Shown here: piece after piece, positions 21,460 through 55,201 of the stretch
How the letters are laid out: each line of letters begins with the position of its first letter
How positions within the stretch are numbered: position 1 is the stretch's first letter
Origin: an uncultured Rikenella sp.
GTDB taxonomy: Bacteria > Bacteroidota > Bacteroidia > Bacteroidales > Rikenellaceae
Assembly: GCF_910577125.1 (NCBI RefSeq)
Contig: NZ_CAJTMN010000002.1
Coordinates: forward strand, 7,227 to 71,226
Reading direction: 5' to 3'
DNA length: 64,000 bases
Notes under the pieces: generated by a model
What the model was told of the DNA's origin: nothing
Database searches by the model: none
The model's input: the letters and a program-made list of their open reading frames with translations, nothing else
Made by a program: the position numbers and the translations under genes

Positions 21460-23120
21460 CTACAAAAAACGATTCGTCACATCCTCGAATTCCGGCCGGG
21501 CGAACTCGGACAAGAAACCCGTCTCCGGCGAATAAGCCCGATCCGGAACCACATACGGCTCGCTGCCACACTCCGGCAAACGGTTCAGGCCGCTATACCG
21601 CACCGTCCGGAAGGAGACCGGAATCTCCATCGCCAGCCGCTCCGCCGCCGACGCTGTCCGATACCGCCCGACATCACCCTCGACGATGCAGGCCACCGAA
21701 TCGACATTCAACTTCTCCCACAACACCGACTTCGCATGATGGATCAGCCCGCCGATGCACCACCGTCCGTCACGATAGGCCGCCAGAAAACCCAACTCCT
21801 CCGCCCGCGCCGGTATAGCCTCATAGAGCGCATCCAGCCTCTGCTGCACATCCCGCTCCCGAAAGAGGTCGCCGTCCGGCAACAGGTCGAAACTCCGCTC
21901 CAGCACAGCTTTGTCATAAGGCGCCGCATCCCGCACCCCGTCCGGAGGCGCCACCACATACACCGGCCGGAAGTTCCCCTGCGTTTCGGGCGTCCGCCGC
22001 CGGTTGATGCGTCCGAAACGCTGCACCAGCGCATCCAGCGGCGCACACTCGGTCACCATCACATCGAAACTGATGTCCAGACTGACCTCCACCACCTGCG
22101 TGGCCACCACGATACAGCCCTCGCCCGCCGGCAGCCGGTTCAGCTCCCCGACCAGCCTCTTTTCGAGTCCCGCCCGATCGCCCCGTTTAAAGCGGCTGTG
22201 AATCAGCATCACCGGCACCTCCGCCCCGTACTCCTCCGCCAGCCGGCTGTAAAGTTCCTGCGCCCGCGCCACCCGGTTGCAGACCGCCAGCACCTTTTCA
22301 CCCCGCTCCACCGCCTCCCGCACCACCGGCCCGGCCGCCTCCCAGTCCGCCAGTTTATAGACCCGGTGGCGGTCGAACGTATCCAGCACCTCCGCCGGCA
22401 ACCGCACCTCGCAAACCCGCTCCGGCCCACCCAGCAGAGCCAGCATCCGGTCATACAACGCCCGCGGCATCGTCGCCGTCCCCACATGCACACGACACCC
22501 GACCGAAAGCAGCACCTCTGCGATTTTCAGCACAATCGACTGGATTTCATCGCCGTACGTATGAATTTCATCCAAAATCACGTCACAACCCCGCAAATCG
22601 GCCAGCATCGCCTCGTATCCCTTGACTCCGAAGGCCACGGAAGCCATCTGGTGCGGCGTCATCACCTTGACCGCCGCTCCCGGATGCCGCTGCAGGATCC
22701 GTTCTTCCCACGCTCCGCCCTCGTCCCTCAGCATCGACGAGGCGTGCAACAGCCTCACGTCCGCTCCCGTTCCCTCCAGATCGTGCCGAATCCGATCGTA
22801 CATCGCATTGATCGAGGCCTGAAACGGCAGCGTATAGAAGACCCGTCCTCGACACCTGCGCAGCAGGAAATCGGTTTTGCCCGCCCCCGTAGGCGCCGTC
22901 ACCATTGTATGCGGCCTCGCATCCGCCGCATCCGTCAGGGAGAGCGGATACAGCTCGTTTCGCCGCGAAGCGTAATAGCTCAAATCCGGCACCCGGAAAA
23001 GCCGTCCGGCATCGATCCGCTCCGCCGCTCCCCCCTCCGCCAGCGCCGAGGCCATCCCGTCGGCCGCCATCAGAACGCCCCGCCAGAGCGACCACTCTTT
23101 CCGCCGCATCCGCTCCCGAC
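21460..23120 (-). pseudogene. cas3: cas3, 3' fragment: end of HD domain (motif V) plus SF2 helicase, cut off by prophage insertion
   Basis: ORF 21460-23109. LMAADGMASA (HD motif V), APTGAGKT (Walker A), ILDEIHTY (DEIH box), QRFGRINRR (motif VI). The frame stays open upstream to the CGAC junction at 23117-23120. Confidence 0.88.
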
Positions 23121-23237
23121 TAAGGGGGGAAAAACGAAAAGTACAAGGGGGAGGATAGAAGAAAAAGACAGTAATGACAAATATATAAGAGAGTTACAAG
23201 AGAGCAGCAGGCGATAGGTTGAATAAACGAAAAGTAT
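23121..23237 (+). repeat. prophage left end (attL) with two putative transposase-binding repeats
   Basis: Terminus is TAAGGGGGGAAAAACGAAAAGTAC. The ACGAAAAGTAC core lies at 23134-23144, and a second copy, ACGAAAAGTAT, at 23227-23237. The same core occurs inverted at the right end. Confidence 0.7.
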
Positions 23238-23698
23238 AATTCGGTATAATTTCAGTATCATTCAGGGCGGCAAAATGGCCGCCTTTTTTGTTGCTTATAT
23301 AACCGACATTCCTAAACTCATATCGAAAGTATGATTTTCTTTCAAAAAACGCGCGCCGCGGTGACATCATAATATACAGCAACCCCAATAGCGGCGCAAA
23401 ATAGCACTCTTTTTACCCCTCGCCTCCAACTCTGCCACAATGACAAAAACAAGGCTCCAAAACGGGCGATTTTATCGCCTCTTTACCACCCTTTGAAGCC
23501 CATTTGACACCCTGCCGATTCCAGTCCGATTTTTTCAAAAATTGGAGTTGGTATTGCAGATGCTATTGCAGTTGCTATTGCAAATTCGGTCAAAAATATA
23601 CCGACTGAAAGGGGGATAGTGCCGAAAAAGTAAAGCTAAAAGGGTGTTTCCGAGGGATAGGCAGGGGGATAATACCGTCTGTTTGACCGAGTGTAAGC

Positions 23699-23731
23699 AT
23701 AAAAATGCGACAAAGTATTGATATGTCGCAT
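23699..23731 (-). terminator. rho-independent terminator downstream of the repressor gene
   Basis: 8-bp stem ATGCGACA (23705-23712) / TGTCGCAT (23724-23731), followed on the minus strand by TTTTT. Confidence 0.5.
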
Positions 23732-23763
23732 TATAGCAGAATAAAACAGATGTGTGCGCCGGT

Positions 23764-24597
23764 TTAGCTGTCTTTTCCCACTTTTTGAACGAGTTTGCCG
23801 ACAACGGTCGAAAGGTCGGAAATCTGTTTTTTCATCGTCTGCATCTCGTTCGCCATGCCGATCGGATCGGACGGTTCGCCGAGCGTTCGTACCAAGAAGA
23901 GTTCGACTGCCCAAATGGCGAAAATCTCCTCTTCCGGCAGCGAGATCGGCTTGTATAGCCGCTGGTCGGCATTGTCGGACAGCAGGGTAATTGTACCGTT
24001 ATGATGCAGTTTGTTTTCGATCCTCTTAATGAACGTACTCCCCTCTCGATTCGTTACGACATAAATCTCCTGGTTGCGTACGTGTTCCCACTCGCTCTCG
24101 TGCAGCCGTCGCACAATAACCCGACTATTATTATAGAGAGTCGGCGACATGGAATCTCCTACGACCTTAATACACAGCCGATCGGCCCGTCCACGCAACA
24201 TTCCTTTCGGTAAATAAATCATTTGCGACCGGTCCATGTACTCCGCATTCGAAGCACCGAACCCCGCGGCAGCTTCCATTTCGACAACCGGGACAGCGGT
24301 ATGATCGTCCGAAGGTGGTTCCATTTGCACAGCTGTAGACTTCGGAATGAGCGTTGGTGCCGGTCCTTCGCTTTTTAACATTTCACCCTGGCCGGTAAAG
24401 AACCATTCGGGATTTACATCGGAATAATACGAGAGAAATTTAATCGTATTATCTTCAGACAAACCATTGGGTTGAGTCAAAATGCCGTTCGATATACCAC
24501 AAGTTTTATAACATTGGTATTTTGTAATACCCTTGTATTCAAGGTATTCCAAAATACGAGCTTTTAGAATCGAAAAATCTCTCTTATTTATTTGCAT
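23764..24597 (-). CDS. phage repressor, HTH + S24 (LexA/CI-like) autopeptidase domain
   Basis: 277-aa ORF. N-terminal HTH (ITKYQCYKTCGISNGILTQ) and C-terminal VVGDSMSPTL...FIKRI Ser/Lys dyad. Leftward orientation next to the left end, as for Mu c. Confidence 0.85.
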   Translation of the reverse strand: MQINKRDFSILKARILEYLEYKGITKYQCYKTCGISNGILTQPNGLSEDNTIKFLSYYSDVNPEWFFTGQGEMLKSEGPAPTLIPKSTAVQMEPPSDDHTAVPVVEMEAAAGFGASNAEYMDRSQMIYLPKGMLRGRADRLCIKVVGDSMSPTLYNNSRVIVRRLHESEWEHVRNQEIYVVTNREGSTFIKRIENKLHHNGTITLLSDNADQRLYKPISLPEEEIFAIWAVELFLVRTLGEPSDPIGMANEMQTMKKQISDLSTVVGKLVQKVGKDS

Positions 24598-24672
24598 GAT
24601 TGAAATATCTCTCGTAATATTGCATTCAGATTCCGCACCGGAACGGTGTAAAGATACTCAAATAATCAAACA
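24598..24672. promoter_or_regulatory. divergent early control region (repressor / early operon promoters and operators)
   Basis: 75-bp AT-rich spacer between the leftward repressor and the rightward early genes. Positional inference only. Confidence 0.4.
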
Positions 24673-24885
24673 ATGAAAGAAGCCAGACAACGAATCATTA
24701 TGCCGCTGGGCGGACGCCTTCGGTTGGCGCTCGATTTCGAGGTAACGCCGCGAATGGCTTACAAGGCCTTGAACTTCGAGGGGCATTCGGACTTAGCCAA
24801 ACGGCTGCGAGCGGCAGCCCTCGAACGGGGCGGACAATTGTACGAGGCAGTCTCTGTCTCCGAACAAACAGGAGCGATTAACTAA
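24673..24885 (+). CDS. small early protein, Ner/Cro-position regulator (tentative)
   Basis: 70-aa ORF, first gene of the rightward early operon. Position matches Mu ner. Confidence 0.45.
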   Translation: MKEARQRIIMPLGGRLRLALDFEVTPRMAYKALNFEGHSDLAKRLRAAALERGGQLYEAVSVSEQTGAIN

Positions 24886-24898
24886 ACACGATACAACG

Positions 24899-25099
24899 AT
24901 GAGACGGTATTATTTCGAGCTGCTGGATAACGAATATAACGATTTGGGGGCCTGCATCCCGGATGGAAGTAATAAACAGGCGGCTATCAATCGCGCCAGG
25001 CAGTGGATGAAAGATAACGGTGTTGCGAGTGCGCAACTGTCTGTCAATAGCATGCGAACGAGCAATCTACTGGATGTGATCGAAATCGAGCTCGATTGA
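24899..25099 (+). CDS. small acidic hypothetical early protein
   Basis: 66-aa ORF between the Ner-position gene and the transposase. No motifs. Confidence 0.45.
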   Translation: MRRYYFELLDNEYNDLGACIPDGSNKQAAINRARQWMKDNGVASAQLSVNSMRTSNLLDVIEIELD

Positions 25100-25170
25100 A
25101 TGAGAGGCATCCCGCCACGGCACAAGGCCGTCGCCCGGAGCGAGATCGGGGCGGGAACTACGAATAACTC

Positions 25171-27120
25171 ATGGAATATTTAGGTAACATACTCTGCATT
25201 ACAGGCGGCGAGCTGATCCTCTCGGATAAAAATCCGAACGGGGTGATGCCTGTCGGCACTTATACGGCACTGGCCCACCGTGGAAAAATGCGCGTTCTGC
25301 GCCGTGCCTGTTATGGCAGTCCGGCACTGGTGGAGTATGACAGTCTGCCGGTGCGCTACCGCGAGGCGTGGGAGGCCCGGCACGGAGACCCGCATGCCCG
25401 GAGGAAGTTTGCCCCGTTCGCCGAACGGTTGCGCGAGGATACCGAAGCCTACAACGTCTTCACGGCCTACACCTACGACGGCGGGCGGAAGCTCCCGGAC
25501 GAGGCGATTGTCAGTTACTGCAACGACGCGATGATTCTGAACGCCGTTCGGGAAACACTGGAAGTGATGACGGCGGCACGCAAGGCTGCCCGGCTGTCGA
25601 TGGCCGGGCGTTGGGAAAAGATACTGAAACTGGTGGACGGCATTCGGGCCGACTACCCGAACAACCTGCCGAAAACGGCCATCACCCTCAAACGAAAATA
25701 CCAGCGGTACCAGGCCGAAGGGTATACGGCCCTGATTCACGCCGGATTCGGCAACCGGAACCGCGCCAAGGTCAAAGACCGGGTAGATCGGGCTGTCCTG
25801 CTCGACATCCTCAGCCACGGCAACCAGCTGCCCGCCACCGTCGCGGCCGAGACCTACAACCTCTGGGCAGCCTCGCACCGAGCGCCGACCATCACCCCGC
25901 GAACGGTACTCAACTACATGACCGAACATGCCGTGGAGATCGATGTCTCGCGCCGCGGCTCCAAGGCGTGGGCCGACGAGTTCGACCCGATCGTGCACCG
26001 TATTCGGCCGACCGCTCCGCTGCTGTTGGTCAATTCGGACGACAACGACCTCGATCTCTACTTCAAAAACGGGCGGGACAACTACTATCGTTTCAAACTA
26101 TACGTCGTATTGGATGCCCACTGCGATTACATCCTGGGCTATGCGTTCGGCGACCAGGTGACCAACGAATTGATTCGGGAAGCCTACCGCAACGCTATGC
26201 GCCACATCCGCGAACTGACCGGCGGATACTACCTCTGGCACCAGACGGTGGCCGACCGTTGGGGGCTGAGGTCGGACAACCTGCTCGGCTTTTTCGAGTC
26301 GCTGGCCACGTTCACCCCACCGACCGCCGGACTGGCCCGTGCGAAAGTGATCGAACGGTCATTCGGCACCGAGTGGCACAACGCCCTGAAACATTACAAC
26401 AACTACGCGGGCCACAACATTACGGCACGCGAGAAACACAACAGCGATTTCGCACAGACCAATCTCAAACGGAGACCGTCGATCGCGGAGGCTCCGGCGC
26501 TGATCGCCCGATTCATCGCCTCGATGCGGACACTGGAATGGAAAGGGAGCGGCCGGTCACGCGAGCAAGTGTGGCTCGATGGTTTTCGAGCAATGGGGGC
26601 CGACCGGGCGAAACGGATCTCCGAAGAGGTCTATCTGCAACGCTTCGGCCATCGGCACGAGTACAAAAACACGGTGCGAAACAGCGGCATCACGGTGACG
26701 ATCGGCGAGATACGCCGCACGTACGACGTGCCGGAGACAATCTATCGGCAGGCGGTCGGCCGAAAAGTCCGGATCACGTACGACCCGGCAGACCTCTCGC
26801 GGGTGCTGGTCGAGGGCGACCGGTTACGTTTCATCGCCCCGGAGAACGTGCCGCTGCCGATGGCTCTGGCCGACATGCAGCCGGGCGATCGTGAACGACT
26901 GAACGCCGTGCTGGAGCGCAAAAAACGACTCCGCGACCAGAACCGGCAATCGCGCGAAGAGCGGCGCGCGCTCCTGGAACGGATCGGAACCGATGCGCAG
27001 AGCCTCTTGCAGGCCGGAGTAATGGTCAAGGAGGCCCGTTTCGGGGCATCGGAGATCGTCAATCGGCTGACACTGAACGACGACCATGTGGACGGAGGAT
27101 CGATCCGGAGAAAATATTAA
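25171..27120 (+). CDS. MuA-like DDE transposase
   Basis: 649-aa ORF. rve-type core with candidate D (LLLVNSDDNDLD), D (VVLDAHCDYILGY) and E (IERSFGTEWH). Followed by a MuB-like ATPase. Confidence 0.85.
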   Translation: MEYLGNILCITGGELILSDKNPNGVMPVGTYTALAHRGKMRVLRRACYGSPALVEYDSLPVRYREAWEARHGDPHARRKFAPFAERLREDTEAYNVFTAYTYDGGRKLPDEAIVSYCNDAMILNAVRETLEVMTAARKAARLSMAGRWEKILKLVDGIRADYPNNLPKTAITLKRKYQRYQAEGYTALIHAGFGNRNRAKVKDRVDRAVLLDILSHGNQLPATVAAETYNLWAASHRAPTITPRTVLNYMTEHAVEIDVSRRGSKAWADEFDPIVHRIRPTAPLLLVNSDDNDLDLYFKNGRDNYYRFKLYVVLDAHCDYILGYAFGDQVTNELIREAYRNAMRHIRELTGGYYLWHQTVADRWGLRSDNLLGFFESLATFTPPTAGLARAKVIERSFGTEWHNALKHYNNYAGHNITAREKHNSDFAQTNLKRRPSIAEAPALIARFIASMRTLEWKGSGRSREQVWLDGFRAMGADRAKRISEEVYLQRFGHRHEYKNTVRNSGITVTIGEIRRTYDVPETIYRQAVGRKVRITYDPADLSRVLVEGDRLRFIAPENVPLPMALADMQPGDRERLNAVLERKKRLRDQNRQSREERRALLERIGTDAQSLLQAGVMVKEARFGASEIVNRLTLNDDHVDGGSIRRKY

Positions 27121-27138
27121 TCAAAATCCAAATACACA

Positions 27139-28026
27139 ATGATGACGAAAGAACAGAAACAGGAGATTCGAGACCGCCTGGAACGTTATACGGAACAGGT
27201 CGGCGGACAGAACCAGGCGGCAGCTATCCTCGCCGGGGTGAGTGCCGGAACGATTTCCCAAATTCTGAACGGCAAATGGGAACGGATCGCCGAGAAAATG
27301 TGGCTGAACCTCAGTGGCCAACTGTGGGATTATGCCTCCGACACGAGTGGCGGCGAGGAGTGGCATGGCGTTTCGACACGGCCCTACAACGAGTTGATGA
27401 CCACGTTCGAGGATGCCCGGCGTAGGTCCATGGCGATGGCGATCGTTGCGGACGCCGGGACAGGCAAAAGCTACACCGCTCGACGCTATGCGGCCGAAAA
27501 CGGTAGCCTGGTATTCTGTGTAACCTGTAAGGAGGGGTGGAAACTCAAAGCCTTCCTGAAAGAGGTACTGCGGGTGCTTGGCAAGAGTTCGGCTGCGTCG
27601 GATAACGACAACGAGGCGATGTACGCCGTAGTGGTCGAGACGTTGCGACGGAAGGCTCGCCCGGCCCTGATAATCGACGAGGCCGACAAGCTGCACAACG
27701 AGGTATTCCTGAAATTTATCGATTTGTTCAACGACCTCGAAGACCGGTGTGCGTTGGTGCTGATGGCGACCGACTACCTGGAGATGCGGCTGACGAACGG
27801 AGCGAAACGAGGGTATCGCGGGTATCGCGAAATCTTCTCGCGGGTCGGGAACCGTTGCGTCCGCATCCACCGGGCCGATGCGGCAGACGTGCGGGCGATC
27901 TGTCAGGCAAACGGCATCACGGATGCGGCCGAGGTGGCGGAAATTACGAACGACGCGGAGGGCGATCTGCGTCGGGTGAAACGGTCGATCATAGCTCTCC
28001 AGTTAGACAATGGCGCGCGCGGTTAA
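27139..28026 (+). CDS. MuB-like AAA+ transposition ATPase
   Basis: 295-aa ORF. N-terminal HTH (AAAILAGVSAGTISQILNGKWE), Walker A ADAGTGKSY, Walker B LIIDEADKL. Confidence 0.8.
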   Translation: MMTKEQKQEIRDRLERYTEQVGGQNQAAAILAGVSAGTISQILNGKWERIAEKMWLNLSGQLWDYASDTSGGEEWHGVSTRPYNELMTTFEDARRRSMAMAIVADAGTGKSYTARRYAAENGSLVFCVTCKEGWKLKAFLKEVLRVLGKSSAASDNDNEAMYAVVVETLRRKARPALIIDEADKLHNEVFLKFIDLFNDLEDRCALVLMATDYLEMRLTNGAKRGYRGYREIFSRVGNRCVRIHRADAADVRAICQANGITDAAEVAEITNDAEGDLRRVKRSIIALQLDNGARG

Positions 28027-28621
28027 TATCGGACAACTGCTGACGATGCGGTTCCCGCGAATCCCCCTGGAGGGGAGGTGGCGGGAGCTGCTGGGGCAGC
28101 CCGAGCTGCGGGGCAGCATCCTGATCTGGGGCGACTCGGCGCAAGGCAAAACCTCGTTTGCGCTCCAGCTCGCCAAAGAACTCTCCAAGTATGAGTCTGT
28201 GTTGTACGACTCGCTGGAGGAGGGAATCTCCGAGTCGATACGGGCGGCGTGCGTGCGGGAGGGAATGGTCGAAGTCGGGAGTCGGGTTTTGCTGCTGGAC
28301 AACGAACCGATCGCCGAACTGACCGAACGGCTCGCAAGACCCAAAAGTCGGAATGTCGTCATCGTCGATTCGTTGCAGTATACGGGAATGACGTTCGAGG
28401 CCTACAAAGAGCTGCTCGAACGGTTTCCGAAAAAGCTCTTCGTCTTCGTCTCGCACGCCGACGGACGAGAACCGGCCGGACGAATCGCAACGCAGGTCAA
28501 GTTCAACGCCAATATCAAAATACGGGTTTCGGGTTTTACGGCCTACGCGATCAGTCGCTACGGCGGCGGAATGCCCTATACGATCAGCGACGAGATGGCT
28601 GCTCGAATCAATCCGGAATAA
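28010..28621 (+). CDS. RecA/KaiC-like P-loop ATPase
   Basis: 203-aa ORF. Walker A GDSAQGKTSF and Walker B-like VVIVDSLQ. Confidence 0.55.
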   Translation: MARAVNIGQLLTMRFPRIPLEGRWRELLGQPELRGSILIWGDSAQGKTSFALQLAKELSKYESVLYDSLEEGISESIRAACVREGMVEVGSRVLLLDNEPIAELTERLARPKSRNVVIVDSLQYTGMTFEAYKELLERFPKKLFVFVSHADGREPAGRIATQVKFNANIKIRVSGFTAYAISRYGGGMPYTISDEMAARINPE

Positions 28622-28635
28622 AATACGACACGACT

Positions 28636-28848
28636 ATGAAAACCTTAACAGAGATAGGTCGGGAACGATCGCGGTGTCTCGAACGACTACAAGACTACCG
28701 TCGGACGCTTCGGGAAAGCGGCGGATACATGAGCGACACACGGTTGGCGGGCTACAAGACAGCTGTCGCAGATTGCGAAGCACAGATCGCCGCCCTCGAC
28801 GAGGAAGCAAGCCGGAGAACATTTAACAACCTTTCAAACATGTTTTAA
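28636..28848 (+). CDS. hypothetical early protein
   Basis: In-frame ATG at 28636 (MKTLTEIGRERSR...) within ORF 28249-28848. Tightly packed with its neighbours. Confidence 0.45.
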   Translation: MKTLTEIGRERSRCLERLQDYRRTLRESGGYMSDTRLAGYKTAVADCEAQIAALDEEASRRTFNNLSNMF

Positions 28849-28850
28849 CG

Positions 28851-29243
28851 ATGAAAAAAGTAACAAAAGAACAGGCAGAGGCAGCCGTACAGACGGTGCG
28901 GCAGTTGAAAATCCAGGCCTCGGAACTGACCGGGCGTATCAAAGACGCGGAGGCGGTCGTCGAGGCTTACGGGCTCGAACACCTGGGCGAGTTCGCCGAC
29001 GGGCGGCTGGCTCTCGATTCGGGTATTATAGCCATCAAGGCGGGAACCGCGAAGCCGGTCAAAGAGGGCAAGCCGCTTTCGACGGCTGCCCGCGCAGAAC
29101 TGGCCGCAGCGCTGCCTGCGGCCTACGTCAAGGTGGCGTGCGACTTCGGCGTGCTCTTCCAAAGTCAGGACAAGGCCGTGCGCCAGATTCTCAAAGCTCG
29201 CGGAATCGAGATCGTCCGCGAAGACAAGTTCGCAGTAATCTAA
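28851..29243 (+). CDS. hypothetical early protein, possibly Gam-like host-nuclease inhibitor
   Basis: 130-aa ORF. N-terminal coiled coil and position after the transposition genes, as for Mu gam. Similarity is only impressionistic. Confidence 0.4.
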   Translation: MKKVTKEQAEAAVQTVRQLKIQASELTGRIKDAEAVVEAYGLEHLGEFADGRLALDSGIIAIKAGTAKPVKEGKPLSTAARAELAAALPAAYVKVACDFGVLFQSQDKAVRQILKARGIEIVREDKFAVI

Positions 29244-29417
29244 ATGAAAAGCACAACAACACGTCACGTAACCTGTATCCGACCGAAACAGGGATACGAT
29301 TTGGTGGTCAGCAACAAGATCGGTCGAAATACCCCGTGTCCTTGTGGCTCAGGAAAAAAAGCGAAACATTGCTGTGGAACGAAGACTAAATATTACTCCG
29401 CGAAAGCGGTTAAATGA
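29244..29417 (+). CDS. SEC-C metal-binding motif protein (57 aa)
   Basis: Below the ORF-track cutoff. My translation is [57 protein letters not shown]. [15 protein letters not shown] is the SecA C-terminal zinc motif. Confidence 0.6.
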
Positions 29418-29426
29418 GAACCAACC

Positions 29427-29606
29427 ATGAAGATCACAGCCATTTATCAAAAAGAGGGGGCGAATCCTTTCCTCGAACGCGAGGGCGATTACAAACGGGT
29501 AACAGGTCGCGTTCCGGCCGGTTACGACGTGGACGAGGTCGAACATTACGCCATAGCCGCGACGCCGATAGGTTACGTCTTTGTCGGCTTGGAGCGGGCG
29601 GAATAG
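29427..29606 (+). CDS. small hypothetical protein (59 aa)
   Basis: My translation is MKITAIYQKEGANPFLEREGDYKRVTGRVPAGYDVDEVEHYAIAATPIGYVFVGLERAE. Compact spacing. Confidence 0.4.
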   Translation: MKITAIYQKEGANPFLEREGDYKRVTGRVPAGYDVDEVEHYAIAATPIGYVFVGLERAE

Positions 29607-29734
29607 CCTCTGTTTTCAGCACACCTCCCACCGCGTGCGCCTGCACCCATAGCGCGCGGCGGGACTCTCCCCGGCATCAGACGGTGGTGGCAGGCTGAGG
29701 GTTCGACTCCCTCGCCGGGGGCTAAAAGCAAAAT

Positions 29735-30220
29735 ATGGATACACGGTTTCAAAAGTCGAAAAATACGACAGACGAATGGTACACGCCGCGTGAAATAATC
29801 GATGTCCTCGGGCCGTTCGACCTCGATCCGTGCGCTCCGATGGCGAGATTGTGGGATACGGCAGCTAAACATTTCAACAAACAAGAGAACGGCTTGTTGC
29901 AGGAGTGGTTCGGGCGCGTATGGTTGAATCCTCCGTATTCGCATCCGCTGGTACTTCAATTCGTAAAGCGTCTGGCAGAGCATGGAAATGGAATTGCGTT
30001 GCTTTTCGATCGCTGCGACACTAAGATGTTTCACGAGGTGATATTTCCCAATGCGGATGGTGTGTATTTTTTGCGTGAACGAGTGCGTTTTTACCGACCG
30101 GATGGCACACGTGGCGGATCACCGGGGTGTGGTTCGGTGTTGGTGGCATTCGGGGCAGAAAACGCCGAGAAAATATTGAATAGTGGACTGAAAGGCACGC
30201 TATTACGAGTAGAACGATGA
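29735..30220 (+). CDS. phage DNA N6-adenine methyltransferase (Dam family)
   Basis: 161-aa ORF. DEWYTP and WLNPPYS catalytic (NPPY) motifs. Confidence 0.8.
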   Translation: MDTRFQKSKNTTDEWYTPREIIDVLGPFDLDPCAPMARLWDTAAKHFNKQENGLLQEWFGRVWLNPPYSHPLVLQFVKRLAEHGNGIALLFDRCDTKMFHEVIFPNADGVYFLRERVRFYRPDGTRGGSPGCGSVLVAFGAENAEKILNSGLKGTLLRVER

Positions 30221-30305
30221 AAGTCTTAAGTCTATTCGACGGCATGAGTTGCGGGCAGGTCGCCCTGCGGCGGATAAACAACAACTGAAAACTGAAACTG
30301 GAATT

Positions 30306-30737: not shown

Positions 30738-30749
30738 CACTTTCCAGCT

Positions 30750-31250: not shown

Positions 31251-31268
31251 AAAGCCCCGAACAAAGGA

Positions 31269-31547: not shown

Positions 31548-31562
31548 TGCGGGCTTTTCTTA
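31530..31562 (+). terminator. rho-independent terminator ending the early/middle operon
   Basis: Stem AGCCCGC (31533-31539) / GCGGGCT (31549-31555), followed by TTTTCTT. Confidence 0.6.
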
Positions 31563-31565
31563 TAT

Positions 31566-31883: not shown

Positions 31884-31884
31884 A

Positions 31885-32328: not shown

Positions 32329-32341
32329 GGTTTAATTCGGG

Positions 32342-41962: not shown

Positions 41963-41974
41963 CGGAGGCTGGCA

Positions 41975-47604: not shown

Positions 47605-48502
47605 GTATTACCTGAACGGAGAGCCTCTTTCGGCGTTCGGATTCGTACCGGGTCATGCGACAGGCAGCAATCTCGCCCTTTCCGGCGCGTGGGATATGCC
47701 CGCCCGCAGCGGCGACACCTCGTACACCTGGCAGGAGACGAACGGTATCGAGCCTTATGTCGAAGAAGCGGATATGCTTTTCGAGGCACGTACCATCAAG
47801 TTGGTCGGCAGTATATCTGCATCGGATCGGACGGTATTTTGGAATCGGCTGGAGGCCTTCCGCGCCTTCGTCGAATCGTTGCCCGCCACGTTCGAGCTCC
47901 GCTGCGACTGGGCCGTACGTACGGTCAGCCGCAGCGCCGAGATGAAGGCGGACATCCGTGGCGGCCGGGTGGCCCGGATCACGCTCTCGTTCACCGAACC
48001 GGCGCCGGACCTTTCGGGCCGCCCACCCGTGCAGTGGATACTGGCCACCGGCGTATGGAACACGCTCGGAACCTGGTTGGACGAGGCCCCTTGGTATGCC
48101 GTCGAGGAGGGGCGGGCCGTCGAACCGCAGATCGACCTCTGGTCCTGGGAGTCCTTTGGCTTCATACCGAGCGGGATGACCGGCGAAGGAGTCGTACCGA
48201 CCGTGCGATCACTCCGAGTAACGCAGCCGGCCCGCGGAGCAACGATCGTCGCCCCAGGGGGTCGCGAAGCGCGCGAACTAACCCTCGCCGGCGTACTGGT
48301 CGCCGACGACATGAGCGATTTCGACCGCCGCGTCCGGTCGTTATACTGGCTGTTCGGCTCCGCAGGCCTACGAACGTTGCATCGCCACGGCCGGGAGATA
48401 GATTGTTTTGCCCGTAATGGTTTCACGCTGACCGGAATCCAGAAACGCGAACGCATCTATGCAAAATTGAACGTCAAATTAACCGAAGTTGAACATGGAT
48501 AA
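47594..48502 (+). CDS. distal tail protein (Dit-like)
   Basis: 302-aa ORF overlapping the TMP stop. Positional call. Confidence 0.55.
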   Translation: MPSEYYLNGEPLSAFGFVPGHATGSNLALSGAWDMPARSGDTSYTWQETNGIEPYVEEADMLFEARTIKLVGSISASDRTVFWNRLEAFRAFVESLPATFELRCDWAVRTVSRSAEMKADIRGGRVARITLSFTEPAPDLSGRPPVQWILATGVWNTLGTWLDEAPWYAVEEGRAVEPQIDLWSWESFGFIPSGMTGEGVVPTVRSLRVTQPARGATIVAPGGREARELTLAGVLVADDMSDFDRRVRSLYWLFGSAGLRTLHRHGREIDCFARNGFTLTGIQKRERIYAKLNVKLTEVEHG

Positions 48503-51236
48503 CCTAACGATATGGCGTGCCGGAGCCGAGTTGTACCACCTCCCGGCCGGTACGAAACTGGAGCTGTCGCAAAAACTGATGGCCGAACAGACAATCACCT
48601 ACGACGTGGCCGTCGCCTCGCCGCTTGACCTGCGGGCCGGCGACTATGTCGAATGGCAGGAGGTCCGTTATTCGCTCTTCGAGGAGCCCGATTACAAGCA
48701 CACCGCCGGCGTTTACACCTATAACCTCCGTTTCTACGCCCCCTACCACCGCCTCAGCCACATCCTGCACAAGGACGAGGGGGCGACCTCGTTCGCCTAC
48801 TTCGGCAGCGTGCGGGAACATCTGGAGGCCCTGTTGAAGTCCGTTCAGGCGATCGACCCGGAGTTCAAGCTGGGTACGATCGACGAGAACGGTTCGCAGC
48901 TGCTCGAATTTGCCGACACTTACTGCCTCGACGCGCTGACACAGATATGCGAAGCGTTCAAGATGCAGTGGGAGGTCGAGAACAAGACGATCAACGTCCA
49001 GCGCCGCATCGGCGTGGATACCTCCTATCGTTTTGCCTACGGCTGCGGCCAGGGGCTCTACTCCCTGGACAAGGCCGGCGTGACCAACGCCAGCGTCGCG
49101 ACACGCCTGTACGGTCGCGGTGCCGCCCAGAACCTCCCGCCGCGCTATCGAGAAACCGATACTCCGATGCCGGACACCCTTGTTTTCGCCGACCGATACC
49201 TGGAGAAGAACACCGATAAGTACGGCATTCGCGAAGATATAGCGACGTTTGAGGAGATTTTTCCGCGTCTGAAGGATGCAACCCTAACTTCCGTGACCGT
49301 ACCGGACGACGTGAACAAAGCGACCGGATGGTCTGTGCAGGTCTCCCTGCCGTTCGACCTGAACGACTGTCTGAGCGAAGACGAAGCGCAAATCAAGTTC
49401 ACTTCCGGCGAACTGACCGGCGAGGGGTTCACGATTTCCCATTACGACCATACAACGGGCTTATTGCAGTTCAACGTCTCAGAAGACAACGGTTATTCGC
49501 TCCCTTCGGCCACCCGCCAGCCGCACGCGGGTGACGGGTACGTGCTGCTAAATATCATTATGCCAGAGGCGTATGTCCAAGCGGCCGAAGAGGAGTTGCG
49601 GGAAGCCACGCAGAAAGAGCTGGAACGACGGTGCGAGAAGCGGTACGCTTATACGCTCGCCGTAGACCCGCGCTATGTGCGGCAGCACGGCATCCAGCTC
49701 CATCCGGGCGACAGCGTTGTGGTCTGTGGGACTCCACAAGCCGCCGGGACTTCGATCCGTGTAACGCAGATCACCTACCCGCTCTACGACCCGCACCGGC
49801 TGGAGATCACCCTGTCCGACACCGTGCTCTATTCCTCCTATGCCGAGAAGATCGAGAACGACATCCGGGACGTGACCCACGAGGTGAACAACGTCCACCG
49901 CGAGTCCCGGACCTTTTCCCGCCGGGCGTGGCGCGACGCCGAAGAGCTGGCCCGGCTGATCGACGCCCTGCGGACCGAACTGCTGCTGGTGGGCAACTTA
50001 GCCGGACAGTTCGCCCTCACCTCCACCTTCGCGGTGAACCAGAACAACACGCGTAATCTATTCAGTGCGACCGGAGGAACATTGCAGCACGCGGTGTACA
50101 AAGGGGCTACGGAGGGGGTCTGGCAGCTCGGCGGGGTGAACCTGACGCTCGAAAGCGACTTGCCCTACTACCTGTACGCCCGGTGCAGCCGCACGAGCTC
50201 GAACGGCTTTTTCTACGCGACGACCGAAAAGATAGAGCCGGAGGCCGTCGAGGGGTGGTACCACTTTCCGGTCGGTGTCATCAGTTCTCCATTCGAAGGG
50301 GCGCGGGTTTTCAACACCACGTACGGTTTCACCCAGATTTCCGGCGGTTCCGTCACGACGGGTTGCATGCGGGACAAGACGGGCCGCCTGGAGATCGACC
50401 TCGACAACGGCACGATCACCGGGCCAGTGAAGTTCAACGAGGGTAGCGCCGGGCTGAACGAGGTGAAAGAGTGGAAAGAGAACTTTACAGCCATTAAAGG
50501 CGGTCTGTTATTGACCTCGCTAATTAAGATGTTGACCGACGGTATCGAGACAGGCGGGCTTTCGACCGGCCGGGACAATGTACTGCTTTGGGGCGGAGGC
50601 ACTTATGCCGACGCATTGGCGAACCTCGCAAAAATCATCCTGCGCCACGACGGTTCGGGCCAACTGGCGGGAGGAAAGATATGGTGGAACGCTCAGGGGG
50701 ATTTGATTTTGAAAGAAGGGGCGGAAATCGGAAAATTCAAAATTGTCAATGGTGGTCTCGATTGGGAAACTGGAGGGTTAATAGAAGGAGATATAGTCAC
50801 TCCGTACGGACATTTCAAAATCAACCCCGATGCTATCGGCCCTATTTTGGAAGTCAGAGGTTCCGGAATCAGTACCATGAAGGTTTATGGTGGGTTCCTC
50901 CTACAATATGGTTGCATTCAATGTTTTGGTTTGGAATTGCGCTCTGTTTCTCGCGATTACACAATTGATGAGTTCGATAGCGTAATTGTGTGCGACAACA
51001 CCGACAAAATCACGATCACCCTACCGGAGGATCCATACCCTGGGCGAATGATTTATATTCGTCGAAACTATTCCGGAGCCGTTGATGTGAAGACTGCCGA
51101 CGGGTTCCTGATCCGAAAAGGTAGTAGCGAGTTCGCCTCCCACGCCATCGGAGGGGTAGGCTGGACACACGTGTATATCTTTCACTACGAAGGCTATCAA
51201 AAATATCGTTGGTTAATGAACCTGATTACGCATTAA
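48489..51236 (+). CDS. tail-associated/baseplate hub protein (Tal-like)
   Basis: 915-aa ORF following Dit. Positional call. Confidence 0.55.
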   Translation: MNMDNLTIWRAGAELYHLPAGTKLELSQKLMAEQTITYDVAVASPLDLRAGDYVEWQEVRYSLFEEPDYKHTAGVYTYNLRFYAPYHRLSHILHKDEGATSFAYFGSVREHLEALLKSVQAIDPEFKLGTIDENGSQLLEFADTYCLDALTQICEAFKMQWEVENKTINVQRRIGVDTSYRFAYGCGQGLYSLDKAGVTNASVATRLYGRGAAQNLPPRYRETDTPMPDTLVFADRYLEKNTDKYGIREDIATFEEIFPRLKDATLTSVTVPDDVNKATGWSVQVSLPFDLNDCLSEDEAQIKFTSGELTGEGFTISHYDHTTGLLQFNVSEDNGYSLPSATRQPHAGDGYVLLNIIMPEAYVQAAEEELREATQKELERRCEKRYAYTLAVDPRYVRQHGIQLHPGDSVVVCGTPQAAGTSIRVTQITYPLYDPHRLEITLSDTVLYSSYAEKIENDIRDVTHEVNNVHRESRTFSRRAWRDAEELARLIDALRTELLLVGNLAGQFALTSTFAVNQNNTRNLFSATGGTLQHAVYKGATEGVWQLGGVNLTLESDLPYYLYARCSRTSSNGFFYATTEKIEPEAVEGWYHFPVGVISSPFEGARVFNTTYGFTQISGGSVTTGCMRDKTGRLEIDLDNGTITGPVKFNEGSAGLNEVKEWKENFTAIKGGLLLTSLIKMLTDGIETGGLSTGRDNVLLWGGGTYADALANLAKIILRHDGSGQLAGGKIWWNAQGDLILKEGAEIGKFKIVNGGLDWETGGLIEGDIVTPYGHFKINPDAIGPILEVRGSGISTMKVYGGFLLQYGCIQCFGLELRSVSRDYTIDEFDSVIVCDNTDKITITLPEDPYPGRMIYIRRNYSGAVDVKTADGFLIRKGSSEFASHAIGGVGWTHVYIFHYEGYQKYRWLMNLITH

Positions 51237-51248
51237 AAACATTACGAA

Positions 51249-51917
51249 ATGACCATATTTTACAAACCCACTCAGGGCGACACCGCAGCAACCGTCGCCG
51301 AAGGATACGATCGCAATTTCCGAGAGCTCGACGAGGAGAAAGAAACTCTGTCGGGAGCACAGGAGAAAGCCGATGCCGCACAAAATGCAGCGGTGAGAGA
51401 GGCCGCAATAAAAGCGGAAGCCGCCTTGCGTAATGCAAAAGAGTACACCGATGCCCGCGAGGTGGCGATCCTTGCATCGGCCGACTCGAAAGACGCCGAC
51501 ACGTTGCAGAGGGCGAAAACCTATGCCGATCAGATCGTGGCTGCATTGGCAGGCAGTGCGCCCGAAACGCTCGACACGTTGCAGGAGTTGGCCGCCGCGT
51601 TGGGCGACGACCCGAATTTCGCCGCGACTGTCATGCAACTAATTGGCGATCGGGTTAAAACCTCCGACTTCACTGCCCATACGGACGATACGGAGAGACA
51701 CATTACCACCGCCGAACGGTCGGCATGGAATGCCAAACTCAACGCAGGTGACTATACAGCGGCCGATGTGCGGGCCAAACTGCTGACGGTGGATGGACCG
51801 GGGTCGGGCCTCGACGCCGACCTGTGGGATGGAGTCCAGCTGTGGCGGGGCACGAAAGCCCAGTACGCCGCCCTGTCGGCAAAAGATGCCAATACGCTAT
51901 ACATCGTTACGGATTGA
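51249..51917 (+). CDS. tail fiber protein
   Basis: 222-aa ORF. LDTLQELAAALGDDPNFAATV segment common in phage fibers, plus a coiled-coil N-terminus. Confidence 0.6.
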   Translation: MTIFYKPTQGDTAATVAEGYDRNFRELDEEKETLSGAQEKADAAQNAAVREAAIKAEAALRNAKEYTDAREVAILASADSKDADTLQRAKTYADQIVAALAGSAPETLDTLQELAAALGDDPNFAATVMQLIGDRVKTSDFTAHTDDTERHITTAERSAWNAKLNAGDYTAADVRAKLLTVDGPGSGLDADLWDGVQLWRGTKAQYAALSAKDANTLYIVTD

Positions 51918-51919
51918 CT

Positions 51920-53365
51920 ATGATTGGAACCGGAAATAAAAAAGCCAAATTGTTCCTGGGTGAAAAACCTGTCCGGGAAGCCTACCTCGGAACGACGAAA
52001 GTCTATCCGAACAGTTCGCTGGCCGTCACCGGGGCGCTTGCTTTCGCGGCGGCCGGCGGCGGGCAGAGTCTCGCCATTACGGTGGAGTCGGGACAGGCGT
52101 GGACGCTCAGCGGAGTGCCGAACGGGTGGTCGGCCTCGGCCACGACGGGGATAGGCCCGGCCTCGGTCGTAATCACCGCCTCGAACAACACTTCGACGGC
52201 AGCCCGGAACGGAACGCTGATAGTGGCGTCGGACGGCCTTTCTGCTTCGTGCTCCCTCTCGCAGGCGGCCGGAGCGCAGGTCTACGCCGCTCCGGTGGTC
52301 TCGCTGGCGGTGGCCGACATTCCGGCTTCGGGCGGCACGGTGTCGTCCGGGACGGTCGGCTACTCGCAGTCGTGGACGTGGAACGGCGTCGCAGGAAGTG
52401 GCGGAACGCTCACCGCGGGCGGAGCGGTCTCCTACTCGGCGGCGGTGTCGGCCGGGAGTCTCAGCACGACGGTACGGGCACGAACGGCTGTCGGTACGCT
52501 CACGGCGACCGTCGCCATGAACGGACAATCCGGCTCTGCTTCGGCGACGGTCTACCAGGCGGAGAACCGAATCGAGTCGGGAACGGACGACGATCTGCTG
52601 AACAAACGGGCCGTGACCCGGATGGTCATCACGGCCTCGCCGGGATCGATCACGGCAAACGGGGGGAGTACGACGTTCAAAGCCCAGCTGCAATCCGTAT
52701 GTACCTACACGAGCGGGGCACAGTCGATCCGGTACGACACGGCGGGGATTCTGGCGCGCAGCTCGTCGGGGAACTTCTCGGTGTCGTCGCCGGGAACGTT
52801 AGAGTCGGACGGCAGAACGTTCAGCTTCACGGTGTCGGCTTCGCAGAATAGCTCGACGAGCTCGCGTTCGACCACAATCACGATATGCGGAGCGGCAGCT
52901 TACGCAACGGATACGAAGACGACGGTATCGGTCTCGCAGACCGGACAGCCCAATACGGCAACCATTAAATTCACGGACTTGTCGGGGAACACAATCTCGG
53001 AAATCGCGTGTGCTTCGGATGGTTTGTTGATGGCCGAGGTGCCGCTTGCGGCGGCCACACCCCTGGCCTTAAAACCGATCGGCCGGACGCAATTCTCGTT
53101 CCGGGTGGTACCGAGCAATTCGGCTATGGAGTGGATGATGGATGCCGGAAACGGCACCTATTTCGCAAACAACTGTGGCTCATTCAGCTGTACGACGGAT
53201 GGAACGATCTGCTATCCGACGCTGGCGGCAGGCGGTACGCTGCGCTTCACAGGGCAGCAGGAGTTCACCGGCATGTTCACCGGAGCGGCAGGAGCGTCGT
53301 TTGCGTTCTATGTTCGATACACCAGTGCGTCGGGCAATGCGACGCTGACGGTCAAAGGGACATAG
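51920..53365 (+). CDS. BACON-domain receptor-binding/tail fiber protein
   Basis: Start MIGTGNKK at 51920. FAAAGGGQSLAITVESGQAWTLSGVPNGWSASATTGIGPASVVITASNNTSTAARNGTLIV matches the BACON pattern. Confidence 0.6.
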   Translation: MIGTGNKKAKLFLGEKPVREAYLGTTKVYPNSSLAVTGALAFAAAGGGQSLAITVESGQAWTLSGVPNGWSASATTGIGPASVVITASNNTSTAARNGTLIVASDGLSASCSLSQAAGAQVYAAPVVSLAVADIPASGGTVSSGTVGYSQSWTWNGVAGSGGTLTAGGAVSYSAAVSAGSLSTTVRARTAVGTLTATVAMNGQSGSASATVYQAENRIESGTDDDLLNKRAVTRMVITASPGSITANGGSTTFKAQLQSVCTYTSGAQSIRYDTAGILARSSSGNFSVSSPGTLESDGRTFSFTVSASQNSSTSSRSTTITICGAAAYATDTKTTVSVSQTGQPNTATIKFTDLSGNTISEIACASDGLLMAEVPLAAATPLALKPIGRTQFSFRVVPSNSAMEWMMDAGNGTYFANNCGSFSCTTDGTICYPTLAAGGTLRFTGQQEFTGMFTGAAGASFAFYVRYTSASGNATLTVKGT

Positions 53366-53390
53366 CAGAGCGGTTCTCGATCTATGACGA

Positions 53391-53446
53391 GCGGGGATTC
53401 CGGAACTCGAAATATAAGTTTCGAGTCCTGAAATCCCCGCTTTTTT
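53391..53446 (+). terminator. rho-independent terminator ending the late operon
   Basis: Outer stem GCGGGGATT (53391-53399) / AATCCCCGC (53432-53440) enclosing an inner hairpin, followed by TTTTTT. Confidence 0.6.
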
Positions 53447-53545
53447 ATTGCCCGCGCTTGGATCGGGAAAAATTTATCTGAAATTCTCTATATCTTTGAA
53501 CAGTTTGTGAGGTTGGGGCGGATGGTCGGATTTTCAATATAGCAT

Positions 53546-54598
53546 GTGATGACAGATTTCAGAAAACAATTCCAGAACTTAATAGAAAATACCCATATTT
53601 TCGATAAGTCAGCCGTTAGCTTGGCGGCATGGAATAACATTTATAACTTGGTGCGTTCCAATATCCCAGAGAAACTTTTTCGGTATCGCGGCATAAATCC
53701 TTATTCTTTGCAAGATGTCGAAACAGAGACCATCTCGCTGTGTCACGCTGGGATGTTCCCGGATAAATACGATTCCTATCTGTATGTGGATCGAAATAAA
53801 ATCAGGAGCGACTTACAAAACGCATTACGGGATGCTTTGCGTATCGTTTGTGTACAGATCGCTCGAAACTCTCCCGACATAAAAGCGGAAAAGGCTTCGC
53901 AGATATGCTATTATAAAGCGCTGGGATATACCGAAGATCAGATTATCGATAAAATTCTCGATGAGGAATATCCGGACTTCATCGAGCAAATTGAATCGGC
54001 TGTAAAGGGTCAGGAGTCACGTTTCCGTAATCCTCGCAACAGTGCCAAAATAGGTTGTTTTACCGAGAGTGTCCAGTCCAAGTATATGTGGGATCGCTAT
54101 GGAGACGGGTATAAGGGGTTTGCGCTGGAATACGATTTCAGAGAATGTATTCCGGAATATAACAAACAGGGCTTGAATGTCAATCTGTTTCCGGTTATCT
54201 ATGCCGACCTGAGACCTGATGTTACGTTGGATGAAGGGAATATTTATGTCTACGAATATTTCAAACAAATCGGAAATAAAAACATGCTGAACTATCTAAG
54301 CTTCCGGCTGCAGATAGATCAGGTTTATTGGTATCGGGCCTATTTGTACAAAGACCGAGAAGAATACGAGCACGAACGCGAGTGGAGGATGCTCTACTAC
54401 AATCTCGACAACGAAGATAACTATGAGTCGATACCAGACATGGAATGTTTGAAGGCGATATATTACGGCCCTGACATCCCTTCAAAAGATAAAGACAAAC
54501 TGCATAAAATAGCTGTCAAAAGGAAGTTAAAAGAACATCAAGTTAGTCTGGATACGGAAAGTCGTAACTACGATTTAAAAATAACGTCTTTCAAATAA
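53546..54598 (+). CDS. DUF2971-family protein, AT-rich cargo gene at the prophage right end
   Basis: 350-aa ORF. LFRYRG..., IGCFTES...MWDRYGDGYKGFALEYD and YEHEREWRML match the DUF2971 motif layout. Visibly lower GC than the rest of the phage. Confidence 0.6.
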   Translation: MMTDFRKQFQNLIENTHIFDKSAVSLAAWNNIYNLVRSNIPEKLFRYRGINPYSLQDVETETISLCHAGMFPDKYDSYLYVDRNKIRSDLQNALRDALRIVCVQIARNSPDIKAEKASQICYYKALGYTEDQIIDKILDEEYPDFIEQIESAVKGQESRFRNPRNSAKIGCFTESVQSKYMWDRYGDGYKGFALEYDFRECIPEYNKQGLNVNLFPVIYADLRPDVTLDEGNIYVYEYFKQIGNKNMLNYLSFRLQIDQVYWYRAYLYKDREEYEHEREWRMLYYNLDNEDNYESIPDMECLKAIYYGPDIPSKDKDKLHKIAVKRKLKEHQVSLDTESRNYDLKITSFK

Positions 54599-54612
54599 TC
54601 CGCGAAGTTTTT

Positions 54613-54659
54613 GTACTTTTCGTTCCGAAAAATCAGCACTTTTCGTTTTGCCGATTATA
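54613..54659 (-). repeat. prophage right end (attR) with two inverted transposase-binding repeats
   Basis: GTACTTTTCGT (54613-54623) and GCACTTTTCGT (54636-54646) are reverse complements of the left-end core. Read inward, the terminus is TATAATCGGCAAAACGAAAAGTGC. Confidence 0.7.
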
Positions 54660-55201
54660 CGACAATAAGCCACCGCCATCTCGTATCCCTCCCGCGCCTG
54701 TTCCAACGAGTACGGAGTCCGTGCCGCCTCCGGCCCAATCAGACCGACCTCGCGCATAATCCCGCACGCCTCCGCACGCCAGGTGTCAAATCCGGCGCTA
54801 TGTATCTCGAACGACTTTTCATTGCCGTCCAAATCCAGCAGCCCCAACTCCCGCGCATCCTTCTTGACCGATTTATGGTGCGCCGCCACCATCTCGACCA
54901 CCGGGCCCCGCCACGCCTCGGGCAATAACGGCAGAAAAAAGAGCGAAGCGATCTCGTGCCGGAAAATCGTCCCCTCCGGCCTCGTCCCCCGCAGCCGCCG
55001 CTGGAAAACCGGCGACGCTTTTCCCACATCGTGCAGCAGCGCTCCCGCCGCAGCCACCTCCTCGTCGACCCCTGTCGCCGCTGCCACCCGGCGGGCAAAA
55101 AGAGCCGTCTGCCGCAAATGATCGGTCAGCGGCAACCCCTGCCCCTCGCCCGGCCGTGGCGTTTTCGCCCAGATATGATCGTATGCCCCCATGATCCGCA
55201 C
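54660..55201 (-). pseudogene. cas3: cas3, 5' fragment: HD nuclease domain motifs I-IV, truncated by prophage insertion
   Basis: ORF 54575-55201. LTDHL, LLHDVGK, RHEIAS and AAHHKS motifs. After ...MAVAYCR the frame reads into the phage end (IIGKTKSADFSERKV...) and stops. Confidence 0.88.

Follow-up and report, generated by a model that had tools for sequence, protein, structure and literature searches.

A 64,000-nucleotide stretch of the genome of an uncultured mouse-gut Rikenella sp. (contig NZ_CAJTMN010000002.1, positions 7,227 to 71,226; the whole stretch is called the window below) carries what is, judging from its predicted genes, a type I-B CRISPR-Cas locus with an adjacent array. Its cas3 gene lies in two pieces on the minus strand, and a Mu-like transposable prophage occupies the interval between them. 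The features around the insertion, in coordinates of the window, are as follows.

54660..55192, minus strand: 5' fragment of cas3, codons 1-177 with 2 nt from codon 178 (RefSeq WP_294596320.1)
54660..54663: duplicated target site at the right end, 4 bp, plus-strand CGAC, GTCG in the sense of cas3 (junction sequence, blastn)
23121..54659, plus strand: Mu-like transposable prophage, 31,539 bp, termini 5'-TAAGGGG...GATTATA-3'
23117..23120: left copy of the target-site duplication, 4 bp, CGAC (junction sequence, blastn against empty sites)
21460..23116, minus strand: 3' fragment of cas3 with HD motif V (invariant D197 in MAADGMAS), SF2 helicase and Cas3 C-terminal domain (RefSeq WP_294596242.1)

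Junctions, empty sites and the ancestral cas3

The 5' fragment carries HD motifs I-IV (H25, H54-D55, H79 and H105-H106, numbered from the ATG). It belongs to an open reading frame (ORF) at 54575-55201 on the minus strand that runs from cas3 into the insert, just as the original prediction had described it, and takes its final 28 codons from phage DNA. The true start of cas3 is most likely the ATG at 55192 (MGAYDHIW) rather than the GTG at 55201, because the homologues of 729 residues begin there by comparison. On the other side of the insert, the minus-strand ORF at 21460-23109 starts with MRRKEWSLWRGVLMAADGMASA and is annotated as a protein of 549 residues from an internal methionine at 23109. 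RefSeq names the 205-residue WP_294596320.1 'Cas3''' and the 549-residue WP_294596242.1 'Cas3'', both under 'uncultured Rikenella sp.'.

On the plus strand, with a slash marking the end of the insert, the left junction reads ...CCGCTCC CGAC/TAAGGGGGGAAAAACGAAAAGTAC, or at greater length ...GCATCCGCTCC-CGAC/TAAGGGGGGAAAAACGAAAAGTAC. The right junction reads ...TTTTGCCGATTATA/CGAC AATAAGCC, or likewise ...ACTTTTCGTTTTGCCGATTATA/CGAC-AATAAGCCACC. Related Rikenella with an intact cas3 were found on contigs L001-L006 (SRR18038xxx) and on L042 and L043 (SRR305929xx), and the gene order of those loci is the same as in the window: TonB-dependent receptor, HmuY, GerE regulator, hemerythrin, EamA and cas6-cas5-cas3-cas8b-cas7b-cas4-cas1-cas2. 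A blastn comparison of L001 with the window returned two blocks, 63998..54660 (88.7% identity) and 23120..16965 (92.4%), which share exactly GTCG in the query. The same two-block pattern was obtained with L042, at 91.8% and 94.9% identity. The empty site in L001-L006 reads GCTTATT-GTCG-GGAGCGGAT, where GTCG occurs once. The breakpoints and their GTCG overlap are the signature of transposition with a 4-bp target-site duplication and do not reflect chance, and the proposal that CGAC flanks a 31,539-bp insert is borne out both by the junction sequences and by the single GTCG of the empty sites. The loci of P0239 (L049-L052) held no more than a lone tail-gene relic amid host genes and were uninformative.

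The removal of the phage together with one CGAC copy had been expected to restore an in-frame Cas3. Indeed, joining the reverse complements of 54660..55201 and 21460..23116 in silico gives 2199 nt in frame, reading ...AVAYCRERMRRKEW..., and the restored Cas3 counted from the ATG at 55192 has 729 residues. As anticipated, the joined protein matches the NCBIfam profile cas3_HD (TIGR01596) over its full length (positions 1-178 of 178, residues 25-205) and then, downstream on the same chain, the helicase core profile TIGR01587 (cas3_core; 2e-60). The Cas3 helicase core and C-terminal domain are present (TIGR01587 at 1e-60, 205.9 bits, cutoff 102), with matches to the solved Cas3 structures 4q2c, 8wtk and 7tr8. 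The truncated HD ORF alone covers only positions 1-138 of the 178 in cas3_HD; motif V sits on the helicase ORF, and no single frame at present holds a complete HD domain with motifs I-V. The arginine at the junction is residue 178. As it precedes the motif V aspartate by 19 residues, the HD domain itself is broken, at a point that separates motif IV from motif V. The HD residues, D197 included, are invariant in a ten-sequence alignment reaching down to 54% identity. The claimed separation of motifs I-IV from motif V thus agrees with both the profile coverage and the alignment.

A search of 5.8 billion proteins returned 3234 homologues of the joined protein at E <= 1e-20. The best of them has 729 residues, 93% identity and 100% coverage, and contains HD, DEAD, Helicase_C and Cas3 C-terminal domains in one chain. 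Global alignments to ten cluster members of 729 residues (92-93% identity) have 0 gap columns across the junction, and the nearest intact allele, P0229, is 96.3% identical to the restored Cas3, again gap-free; the alignment with intact homologues is accordingly contiguous over the junction, the point at which the original prediction could have failed. The locus is a disrupted member of the single-polypeptide Cas3 proteins, in which an HD nuclease is joined to an SF2 helicase, and the comparison with relatives establishes a single predicted HD-helicase Cas3 as the ancestral gene. Intact alleles are far commoner than the disrupted one in the same 90% cluster (49, 29 and 14 contigs, among others, against six contigs with the 205-residue fragment), which indicates that the disrupted allele marks one clone.

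The two ORFs could also be taken for a naturally split pair, Cas3'' (HD) and Cas3' (helicase), with the prophage merely lying between them. Separate Cas3'' and Cas3' genes occur in some type I systems, and the likeness is there to see: two ORFs, one HD-like and one a helicase, bearing the very names that the automated RefSeq annotation gave them. However, this split lies within the HD domain, the HD ORF being an incomplete profile match extended by phage residues, and motif V is on the helicase ORF, 31.5 kb away beyond a phage. Moreover, a target duplication surrounds the insert, and the close relatives, where separate cas3'' and cas3' genes might have been met, all have one uninterrupted cas3 at this locus, encoding a single protein of 729 residues to which the join aligns without gaps. 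The empty-site comparison, the profile coverage and the intact orthologues refute a natural split, and we leave it virtually no probability.

An assembly or binning artefact that fused phage contigs to the cas3 locus would mimic an insertion, and the source is apparently a metagenome-assembled genome; assemblies in general are often broken by transposable phages. Against this, two assemblies of mouse-gut metagenome samples from PRJDB1463, a Logan assembly of DRR014734 and an ENA assembly of DRR014785, contain the left junction together with about 14 kb of phage at 100% identity. The junction recurs in the NCBI assembly GCA_948572245.1, where a stretch of 21.65 kb with the complete CRISPR array is 99.991% identical. 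The left junction is thus found in three independent assemblies from different pipelines (Logan, ENA and NCBI). The right junction is spanned by the 205-residue HD fragment on its six contigs, because the tail of this fragment is phage-encoded. Furthermore, a clean 4-bp duplication, present as one copy in the empty sites, is common to both junctions, and a related prophage located elsewhere has exactly the same termini. The independent assemblies and the six contigs with the right junction ruled out misassembly, and we consider an artefact of this kind extremely improbable. The insertion, its exact boundaries, the duplication and the intact ancestral state are direct observations, as is the Mu-like nature of the insert described below.

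The Mu-like prophage and its relatives

The predicted gene content of the insert is listed here from its left end to its right end.

23764..24597, minus strand: phage repressor read toward the left end, S24 (LexA-like) peptidase domain at its C-terminus
25171..27120, plus strand: MuA/TnsB-family DDE transposase, 649 residues (Pfam Mu-transpos_C, phrog_310, predicted fold)
27139..28026, plus strand: MuB-like AAA+ transposition ATPase (AAA_22, TniB)
28851..31250, plus strand: early/middle genes, namely Gam-like (28851-29243), Dam methylase (29735-30220), nucleoside deoxyribosyltransferase (30249-30737) and GemA-like (30750-31250)
31885..37893, minus strand: inverted tail-completion/portal/packaging module with tail terminator-like and tail-completion (Neck1) genes
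32992-35730, minus strand: fusion of Mu portal, F and PBECR2
35514-35927, 35930-37456 and 37453-37893, minus strand: gp36-like, TerL and TerS/DNA-binding genes, respectively
37971..53365, plus strand: head and tail genes, including head protease, major head protein, an endolysin-like domain (40472-40879), the tape measure (42658-47604, 1648 residues), distal tail proteins and a tail fibre (51249-51917)
53546..54598, plus strand: terminal accessory gene of low GC content (DUF2971; PDC-S31, a candidate defence family of PADLOC)

The transposase matches Pfam Mu-transpos_C above the cutoff and phrog_310 at 1.6e-54, whereas a sequence-level search of the PDB, MuA structures included, gave no match. 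Its AlphaFold model, built from a 36-sequence alignment with a predicted local distance difference test score of 84, resembles TnsB strand-transfer complexes (8aa5, 1e-15) and the Mu transpososome (4fcy, 9e-14). Three residues that do not vary within the family, D290, D362 and E395, are candidates for the catalytic triad. The adjoining gene in the same orientation, which is followed by a second ATPase gene, encodes the MuB-like ATPase (AAA_22 at 8.7e-19; TniB at 23.3 bits, cutoff 22.4) with a weak match to Phage-MuB_C (22.5 bits, below the cutoff of 25).

The window contains five copies of the motif ACGAAAAGTR, where 0.21 would be expected. Four of them lie at the ends of the insert, two per end and in inverted orientation, and are presumed to be binding sites of the transposase.

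23134-23143 and 23227-23236, plus strand: left-end repeats ACGAAAAGTA
54614-54623 and 54637-54646, minus strand: right-end repeats ACGAAAAGTA/G, inverted relative to the left end

The fifth copy, ACGAAAAGTG, lies inside cas2 (17260-17269, minus strand) and is probably due to chance.

Transposases with 81-92% identity are present in other Rikenella assemblies. The relatives share the left terminus TAAGGGGGGAAAAACGAAAAGT, but their flanks differ (...GCGTTG, ...CGCAAG and ...AGCTAC), from which it follows that the element transposes to many sites and is not specific to cas3. Integration specific to cas3 was ruled out by these three other, unrelated sites; with the site in cas3, the phage family has four different left flanks. 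Both ends of one relative, a prophage of about 31.9 kb, are on a single contig (CAOOWE010000005.1), where GTTG forms the last four bases of the left flank and, after ...GCCGATTATA, the first four of the right flank. Two independent insertions therefore carry a 4-bp duplication, CGAC in cas3 and GTTG in the relative. Several related phages form contigs of about 31-32.6 kb (31.3-32.6 kb for L064, L066 and contigs of P0132/P0133), with only 40-200 bp of flank beyond the phage terminus. Such genome-length contigs hint at heterogeneous insertion sites or at virion DNA of an active transposable phage.

The insert is a Mu-like transposable prophage on the grounds of gene content, transposase fold, inverted repeats and 4-bp duplication. 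The identification as a Mu-like phage made earlier is upheld by the MuA/TnsB fold, the MuB-like ATPase, Gam, GemA and the Mu portal, F and gp36 homologues. That the phage is complete, as also claimed, is well supported by its predicted gene content, its intact ends and the similar length of the related prophage. It shares with phage Mu the layout of the left end (a leftward repressor, then a MuA-family DDE transposase, then a MuB-like ATPase), the homologues just named, inverted repeated end motifs and insertion at many sites with a short target duplication. In contrast to Mu, it duplicates 4 bp instead of 5 bp, has termini of the form TA...TA instead of TG...CA, has a transposase that resembles the MuA structures at the level of fold only, and has a siphovirus-type tail with a tape measure of 1648 residues and an inverted packaging/portal module. 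This module (31885-37893) is opposite in strand to the other late genes. The inversion is conserved in relatives and is therefore not a rearrangement of this copy.

No close known phage was found by megablast among 50,697 GenBank phage records, and a search of IMG/VR by transposase peptide patterns gave no close relative; one related IMG/VR fragment was found via the protospacer only. A tblastn comparison with the transposases of hankyphage p00, Porphyromonas gingivalis phage007a and Elizabethkingia phage TCUEAP3 showed only about 25-28% identity across 87-94% of the Rikenella phage transposase. The transposable phages of P. gingivalis have 4-bp bounding repeats outside conserved termini and group with the Bacteroides hankyphage (PMC10367356), and Mu-like phages with MuA and MuB are common in Bacteroidales (bioRxiv 10.64898/2026.05.11.724261). 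The Rikenella phage resembles these Bacteroidota phages (hankyphage p00, the P. gingivalis clade and the proposed 'Ca. Mubacviridae') in the phylum of its host, its MuA-MuB operon and its 4-bp repeats outside conserved termini, but differs in the low identity of its transposase and in having no nucleotide match to GenBank phages. It probably represents a separate, Rikenella-specific lineage of a known kind of phage, and would add this lineage to the little-studied Bacteroidota transposable phages with 4-bp duplications.

Several parts of the prophage vary or stand out. The early slot at 29735-30737, occupied here by the Dam-type methylase and the nucleoside 2-deoxyribosyltransferase, holds other methylases or a radical-SAM gene in relatives and looks like a variable slot for DNA modification or anti-restriction. 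The portal fusion combines a Mu F-like domain with a C-terminal PBECR2 domain (Barnase/EndoU/colicin-like nuclease), and this arrangement is kept in the related phages L031, L034 and L063. The 513-residue protein encoded after the tail fibre gave no significant family match. The DUF2971/PDC-S31 gene adjoins the right end, has a GC content of about 48% compared with about 57% for the phage, and may be a prophage-borne defence gene. A look-up of the last phage protein, the product of this terminal gene, gave no record.

Consequences for the type I-B system

The other cas genes flank the disrupted cas3 on both sides.

55208..56606, minus strand: upstream part of the type I-B operon, cas6b (55806-56606) and cas5b (55208-55804)
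17205..21450, minus strand: downstream part of the operon, cas8b (20167-21450), cas7b (19067-20134), cas4 (18490-19041), cas1b (17477-18493) and cas2 (17205-17468)

PADLOC matched Cas8b (2e-147), Cas7b (2e-176), Cas5b (5e-78) and Cas6b (3e-59), and Cas1b (TIGR03641, 449 bits) and Cas4 were also matched. All cas genes except cas3 are full length, with lengths as in the intact relatives, and the genes from cas8b to cas2 now lie 31.5 kb from the start of the operon.

Cas3 is needed for interference and for primed adaptation in type I systems. We propose that a temperate Mu-like Rikenella phage entered cas3 at codon 178 through DDE transposition, duplicating GTCG. The insertion parts HD motifs I-IV from motif V and the helicase, and sets cas8b-cas7b-cas4-cas1-cas2 apart from the operon start by the same 31.5 kb. 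Neither fragment could then supply the nuclease-helicase activity, as the HD part would lack its last metal-binding motif and be separated from the helicase. Interference and Cas3-dependent primed adaptation would consequently be lost in this clone, since Cas3 is required for both, and, from what is known of type I systems, the CRISPR-Cas system is very probably disabled. We hold the explanation as a whole, namely phage insertion into cas3 with duplication of GTCG and the resulting loss of Cas3 function, with high confidence.

Several points nevertheless weigh against such a clear-cut outcome. The helicase fragment has an ATG left from which it could be translated, and the HD fragment keeps four of its five motifs, making residual or altered activity possible. 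Expression of Cascade, Cas1, Cas2 and Cas4 may continue, for instance by read-through from the repressor gene, which has the same leftward orientation, so that the system could go on acquiring spacers naively or binding targets that it does not cleave. In addition, no endolysin or holin gene was confidently identified in the phage beyond the one endolysin-like domain match. The window as a whole gave no match to the full consensus of an outward promoter of Bacteroidetes type (TTTG-N17-21-TAnnTTTG) that could serve the downstream cas genes.

Phages of the Mu type use transposition to replicate, and precise excision is not normal for them. For this reason, the knock-out would be effectively permanent. 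One could instead regard the prophage as a reversible switch ('active lysogeny'), whose excision restores cas3 when needed. Prophage switches of this sort are known for site-specific integrases, as in the Listeria comK prophage, and removal of the phage with one CGAC copy would restore the reading frame. Yet the transposase here is of the MuA/TnsB type, which normally goes without precise excision, and no integrase or excisionase was seen among the annotated genes of the insert. Furthermore, the exact restored sequence of 729 residues has no record among about 15 billion sequences. We therefore regard a switch as very unlikely and favor a lasting loss of Cas3 by insertion.

The case adds a natural instance to two known categories, Mu-like phages of Bacteroidota and cas genes inactivated by insertion. 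Its value lies in that it resolves to the base pair how a temperate phage wrecks the effector nuclease of its host's CRISPR-Cas system in nature. It also exposes an annotation trap: as RefSeq labels the fragments Cas3'' and Cas3', the disrupted locus looks like an intact split-Cas3 system, and automated surveys would score this very probably dead locus as a complete type I-B system.

Spacer 41 and the array

The array next to cas2 contains a spacer that nearly matches the prophage, an addition that goes beyond the original prediction.

13823..16994, minus strand: CRISPR array of 49 repeats (ATTTCAATTCAACTATTGTAGGATTGGGAG on the plus strand), leader at the high-coordinate end
16537-16570: spacer 41
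30927..30960, plus strand: protospacer in the gemA-like gene, 30/34 positions identical to spacer 41, 5' flank GGTTCCG

The four mismatches are at CRISPR RNA (crRNA) positions 3, 5, 13 and 30. Of these, three affect the third base of a codon and are synonymous, and the fourth replaces V with A. In a control with 20 shuffled sets of all spacers, no match was obtained at <=7 mismatches. Against related phages, spacer 41 has 4-6 mismatches, and no perfect target of it was found, including in a scan of JGI metagenomes. A scan with the leader-proximal spacer found no target, and only one spacer has any known target. Spacer 41 thus indicates that the host lineage once acquired immunity to a member of this phage family, with the prophage as a diverged target.

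Imperfect targets trigger priming, not cleavage, in type I-E, I-F and I-B systems. With a working Cas3, spacer 41 could thus cause priming, low-level self-targeting or the lethal uptake of self-spacers, and the loss of cas3 would end the conflict. We speculated that lysogens with the phage in cas3 were selected because spacer 41 partly matches the prophage, so that only lysogens in which the phage landed in cas3, or later transposed into it, escaped. This scenario would extend the insertional loss of Cas3 and does not compete with it. Besides the match itself and the shuffled controls, the mismatches fit the pattern of an imperfect target, with two at the presumed seed positions 3 and 5 and three synonymous. 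The undamaged state of the other cas genes and of the 36 identical leader-side repeats fits a recently active system.

There is also a laboratory precedent. In lysogens of the Mu-like phage DMS3 in Pseudomonas aeruginosa PA14, where an imperfect spacer match led to loss of cas function, autoimmunity was resolved by cas mutations, spacer loss and deletions mediated by phage transposition, one of them starting in cas3 (Suttenfield et al. 2024, PMC11406979). The two cases have in common a Mu-like prophage, an imperfect spacer, a type I system and a loss of CRISPR-Cas function that came about, at least in part, via phage transposition. They differ in that DMS3/PA14 is laboratory evolution of a type I-F system with large deletions, whereas the window represents a gut Bacteroidota clone from nature, in which the resident prophage itself simply inserted into the cas3 of a type I-B system. 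A second precedent is the prophage PhiAP1.1, which integrates into the CRISPR array of Streptococcus pyogenes (Varble et al., bioRxiv 10.1101/2020.10.09.333658). There, too, a temperate phage neutralises host CRISPR immunity by its integration site, but its integration is site-specific and reversible, targets type II-A repeats and is aided by anti-CRISPR, unlike the non-specific transposition into a cas gene described here.

On the other hand, we have a single event in a single clone, in a window chosen because it was striking. The phage family hits several unrelated sites, as its four flanks demonstrate, so that a gene of 2.2 kb could have been hit by chance. Moreover, the protospacer, with CCG as its 5' flank, may not be recognised by this system at all, and the related phages are no closer to spacer 41 than the prophage, with no perfect match found. 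We therefore consider selection through spacer 41 possible but doubtful. If true, it would mean that transposable phages come with an inherent means of neutralising CRISPR-Cas in nature that needs no protein, in this case in a Bacteroidota commensal of the gut, with the phage at the same time bringing in its own candidate defence gene (DUF2971 / PDC-S31). The empty ancestral site in sister strains and the near-matching spacer against the same phage family, which is still in the array, together make this locus a natural gut-Bacteroidota counterpart to the Pseudomonas laboratory findings on Mu-like phages and CRISPR autoimmunity.

The array itself showed a few further features. The 36 repeats nearest to cas2 are identical and those at the opposite end have degenerated, which places the leader next to cas2 and the transcription of the array on the minus strand; in this orientation the repeat ends in ATTGAAAT. 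The repeats at the trailer end (13823-14641) have 1-3 substitutions each. One repeat (13953-13983) has a 1-nt insertion and escapes simple pattern matching, so that the array has 49 repeats and not 48. The adjacent spacers at 14906-14939 and 14970-15003 are identical (AATCAACCCGTCTACCGCAGCGACGACGATTTTT), a duplication of a repeat-spacer unit.

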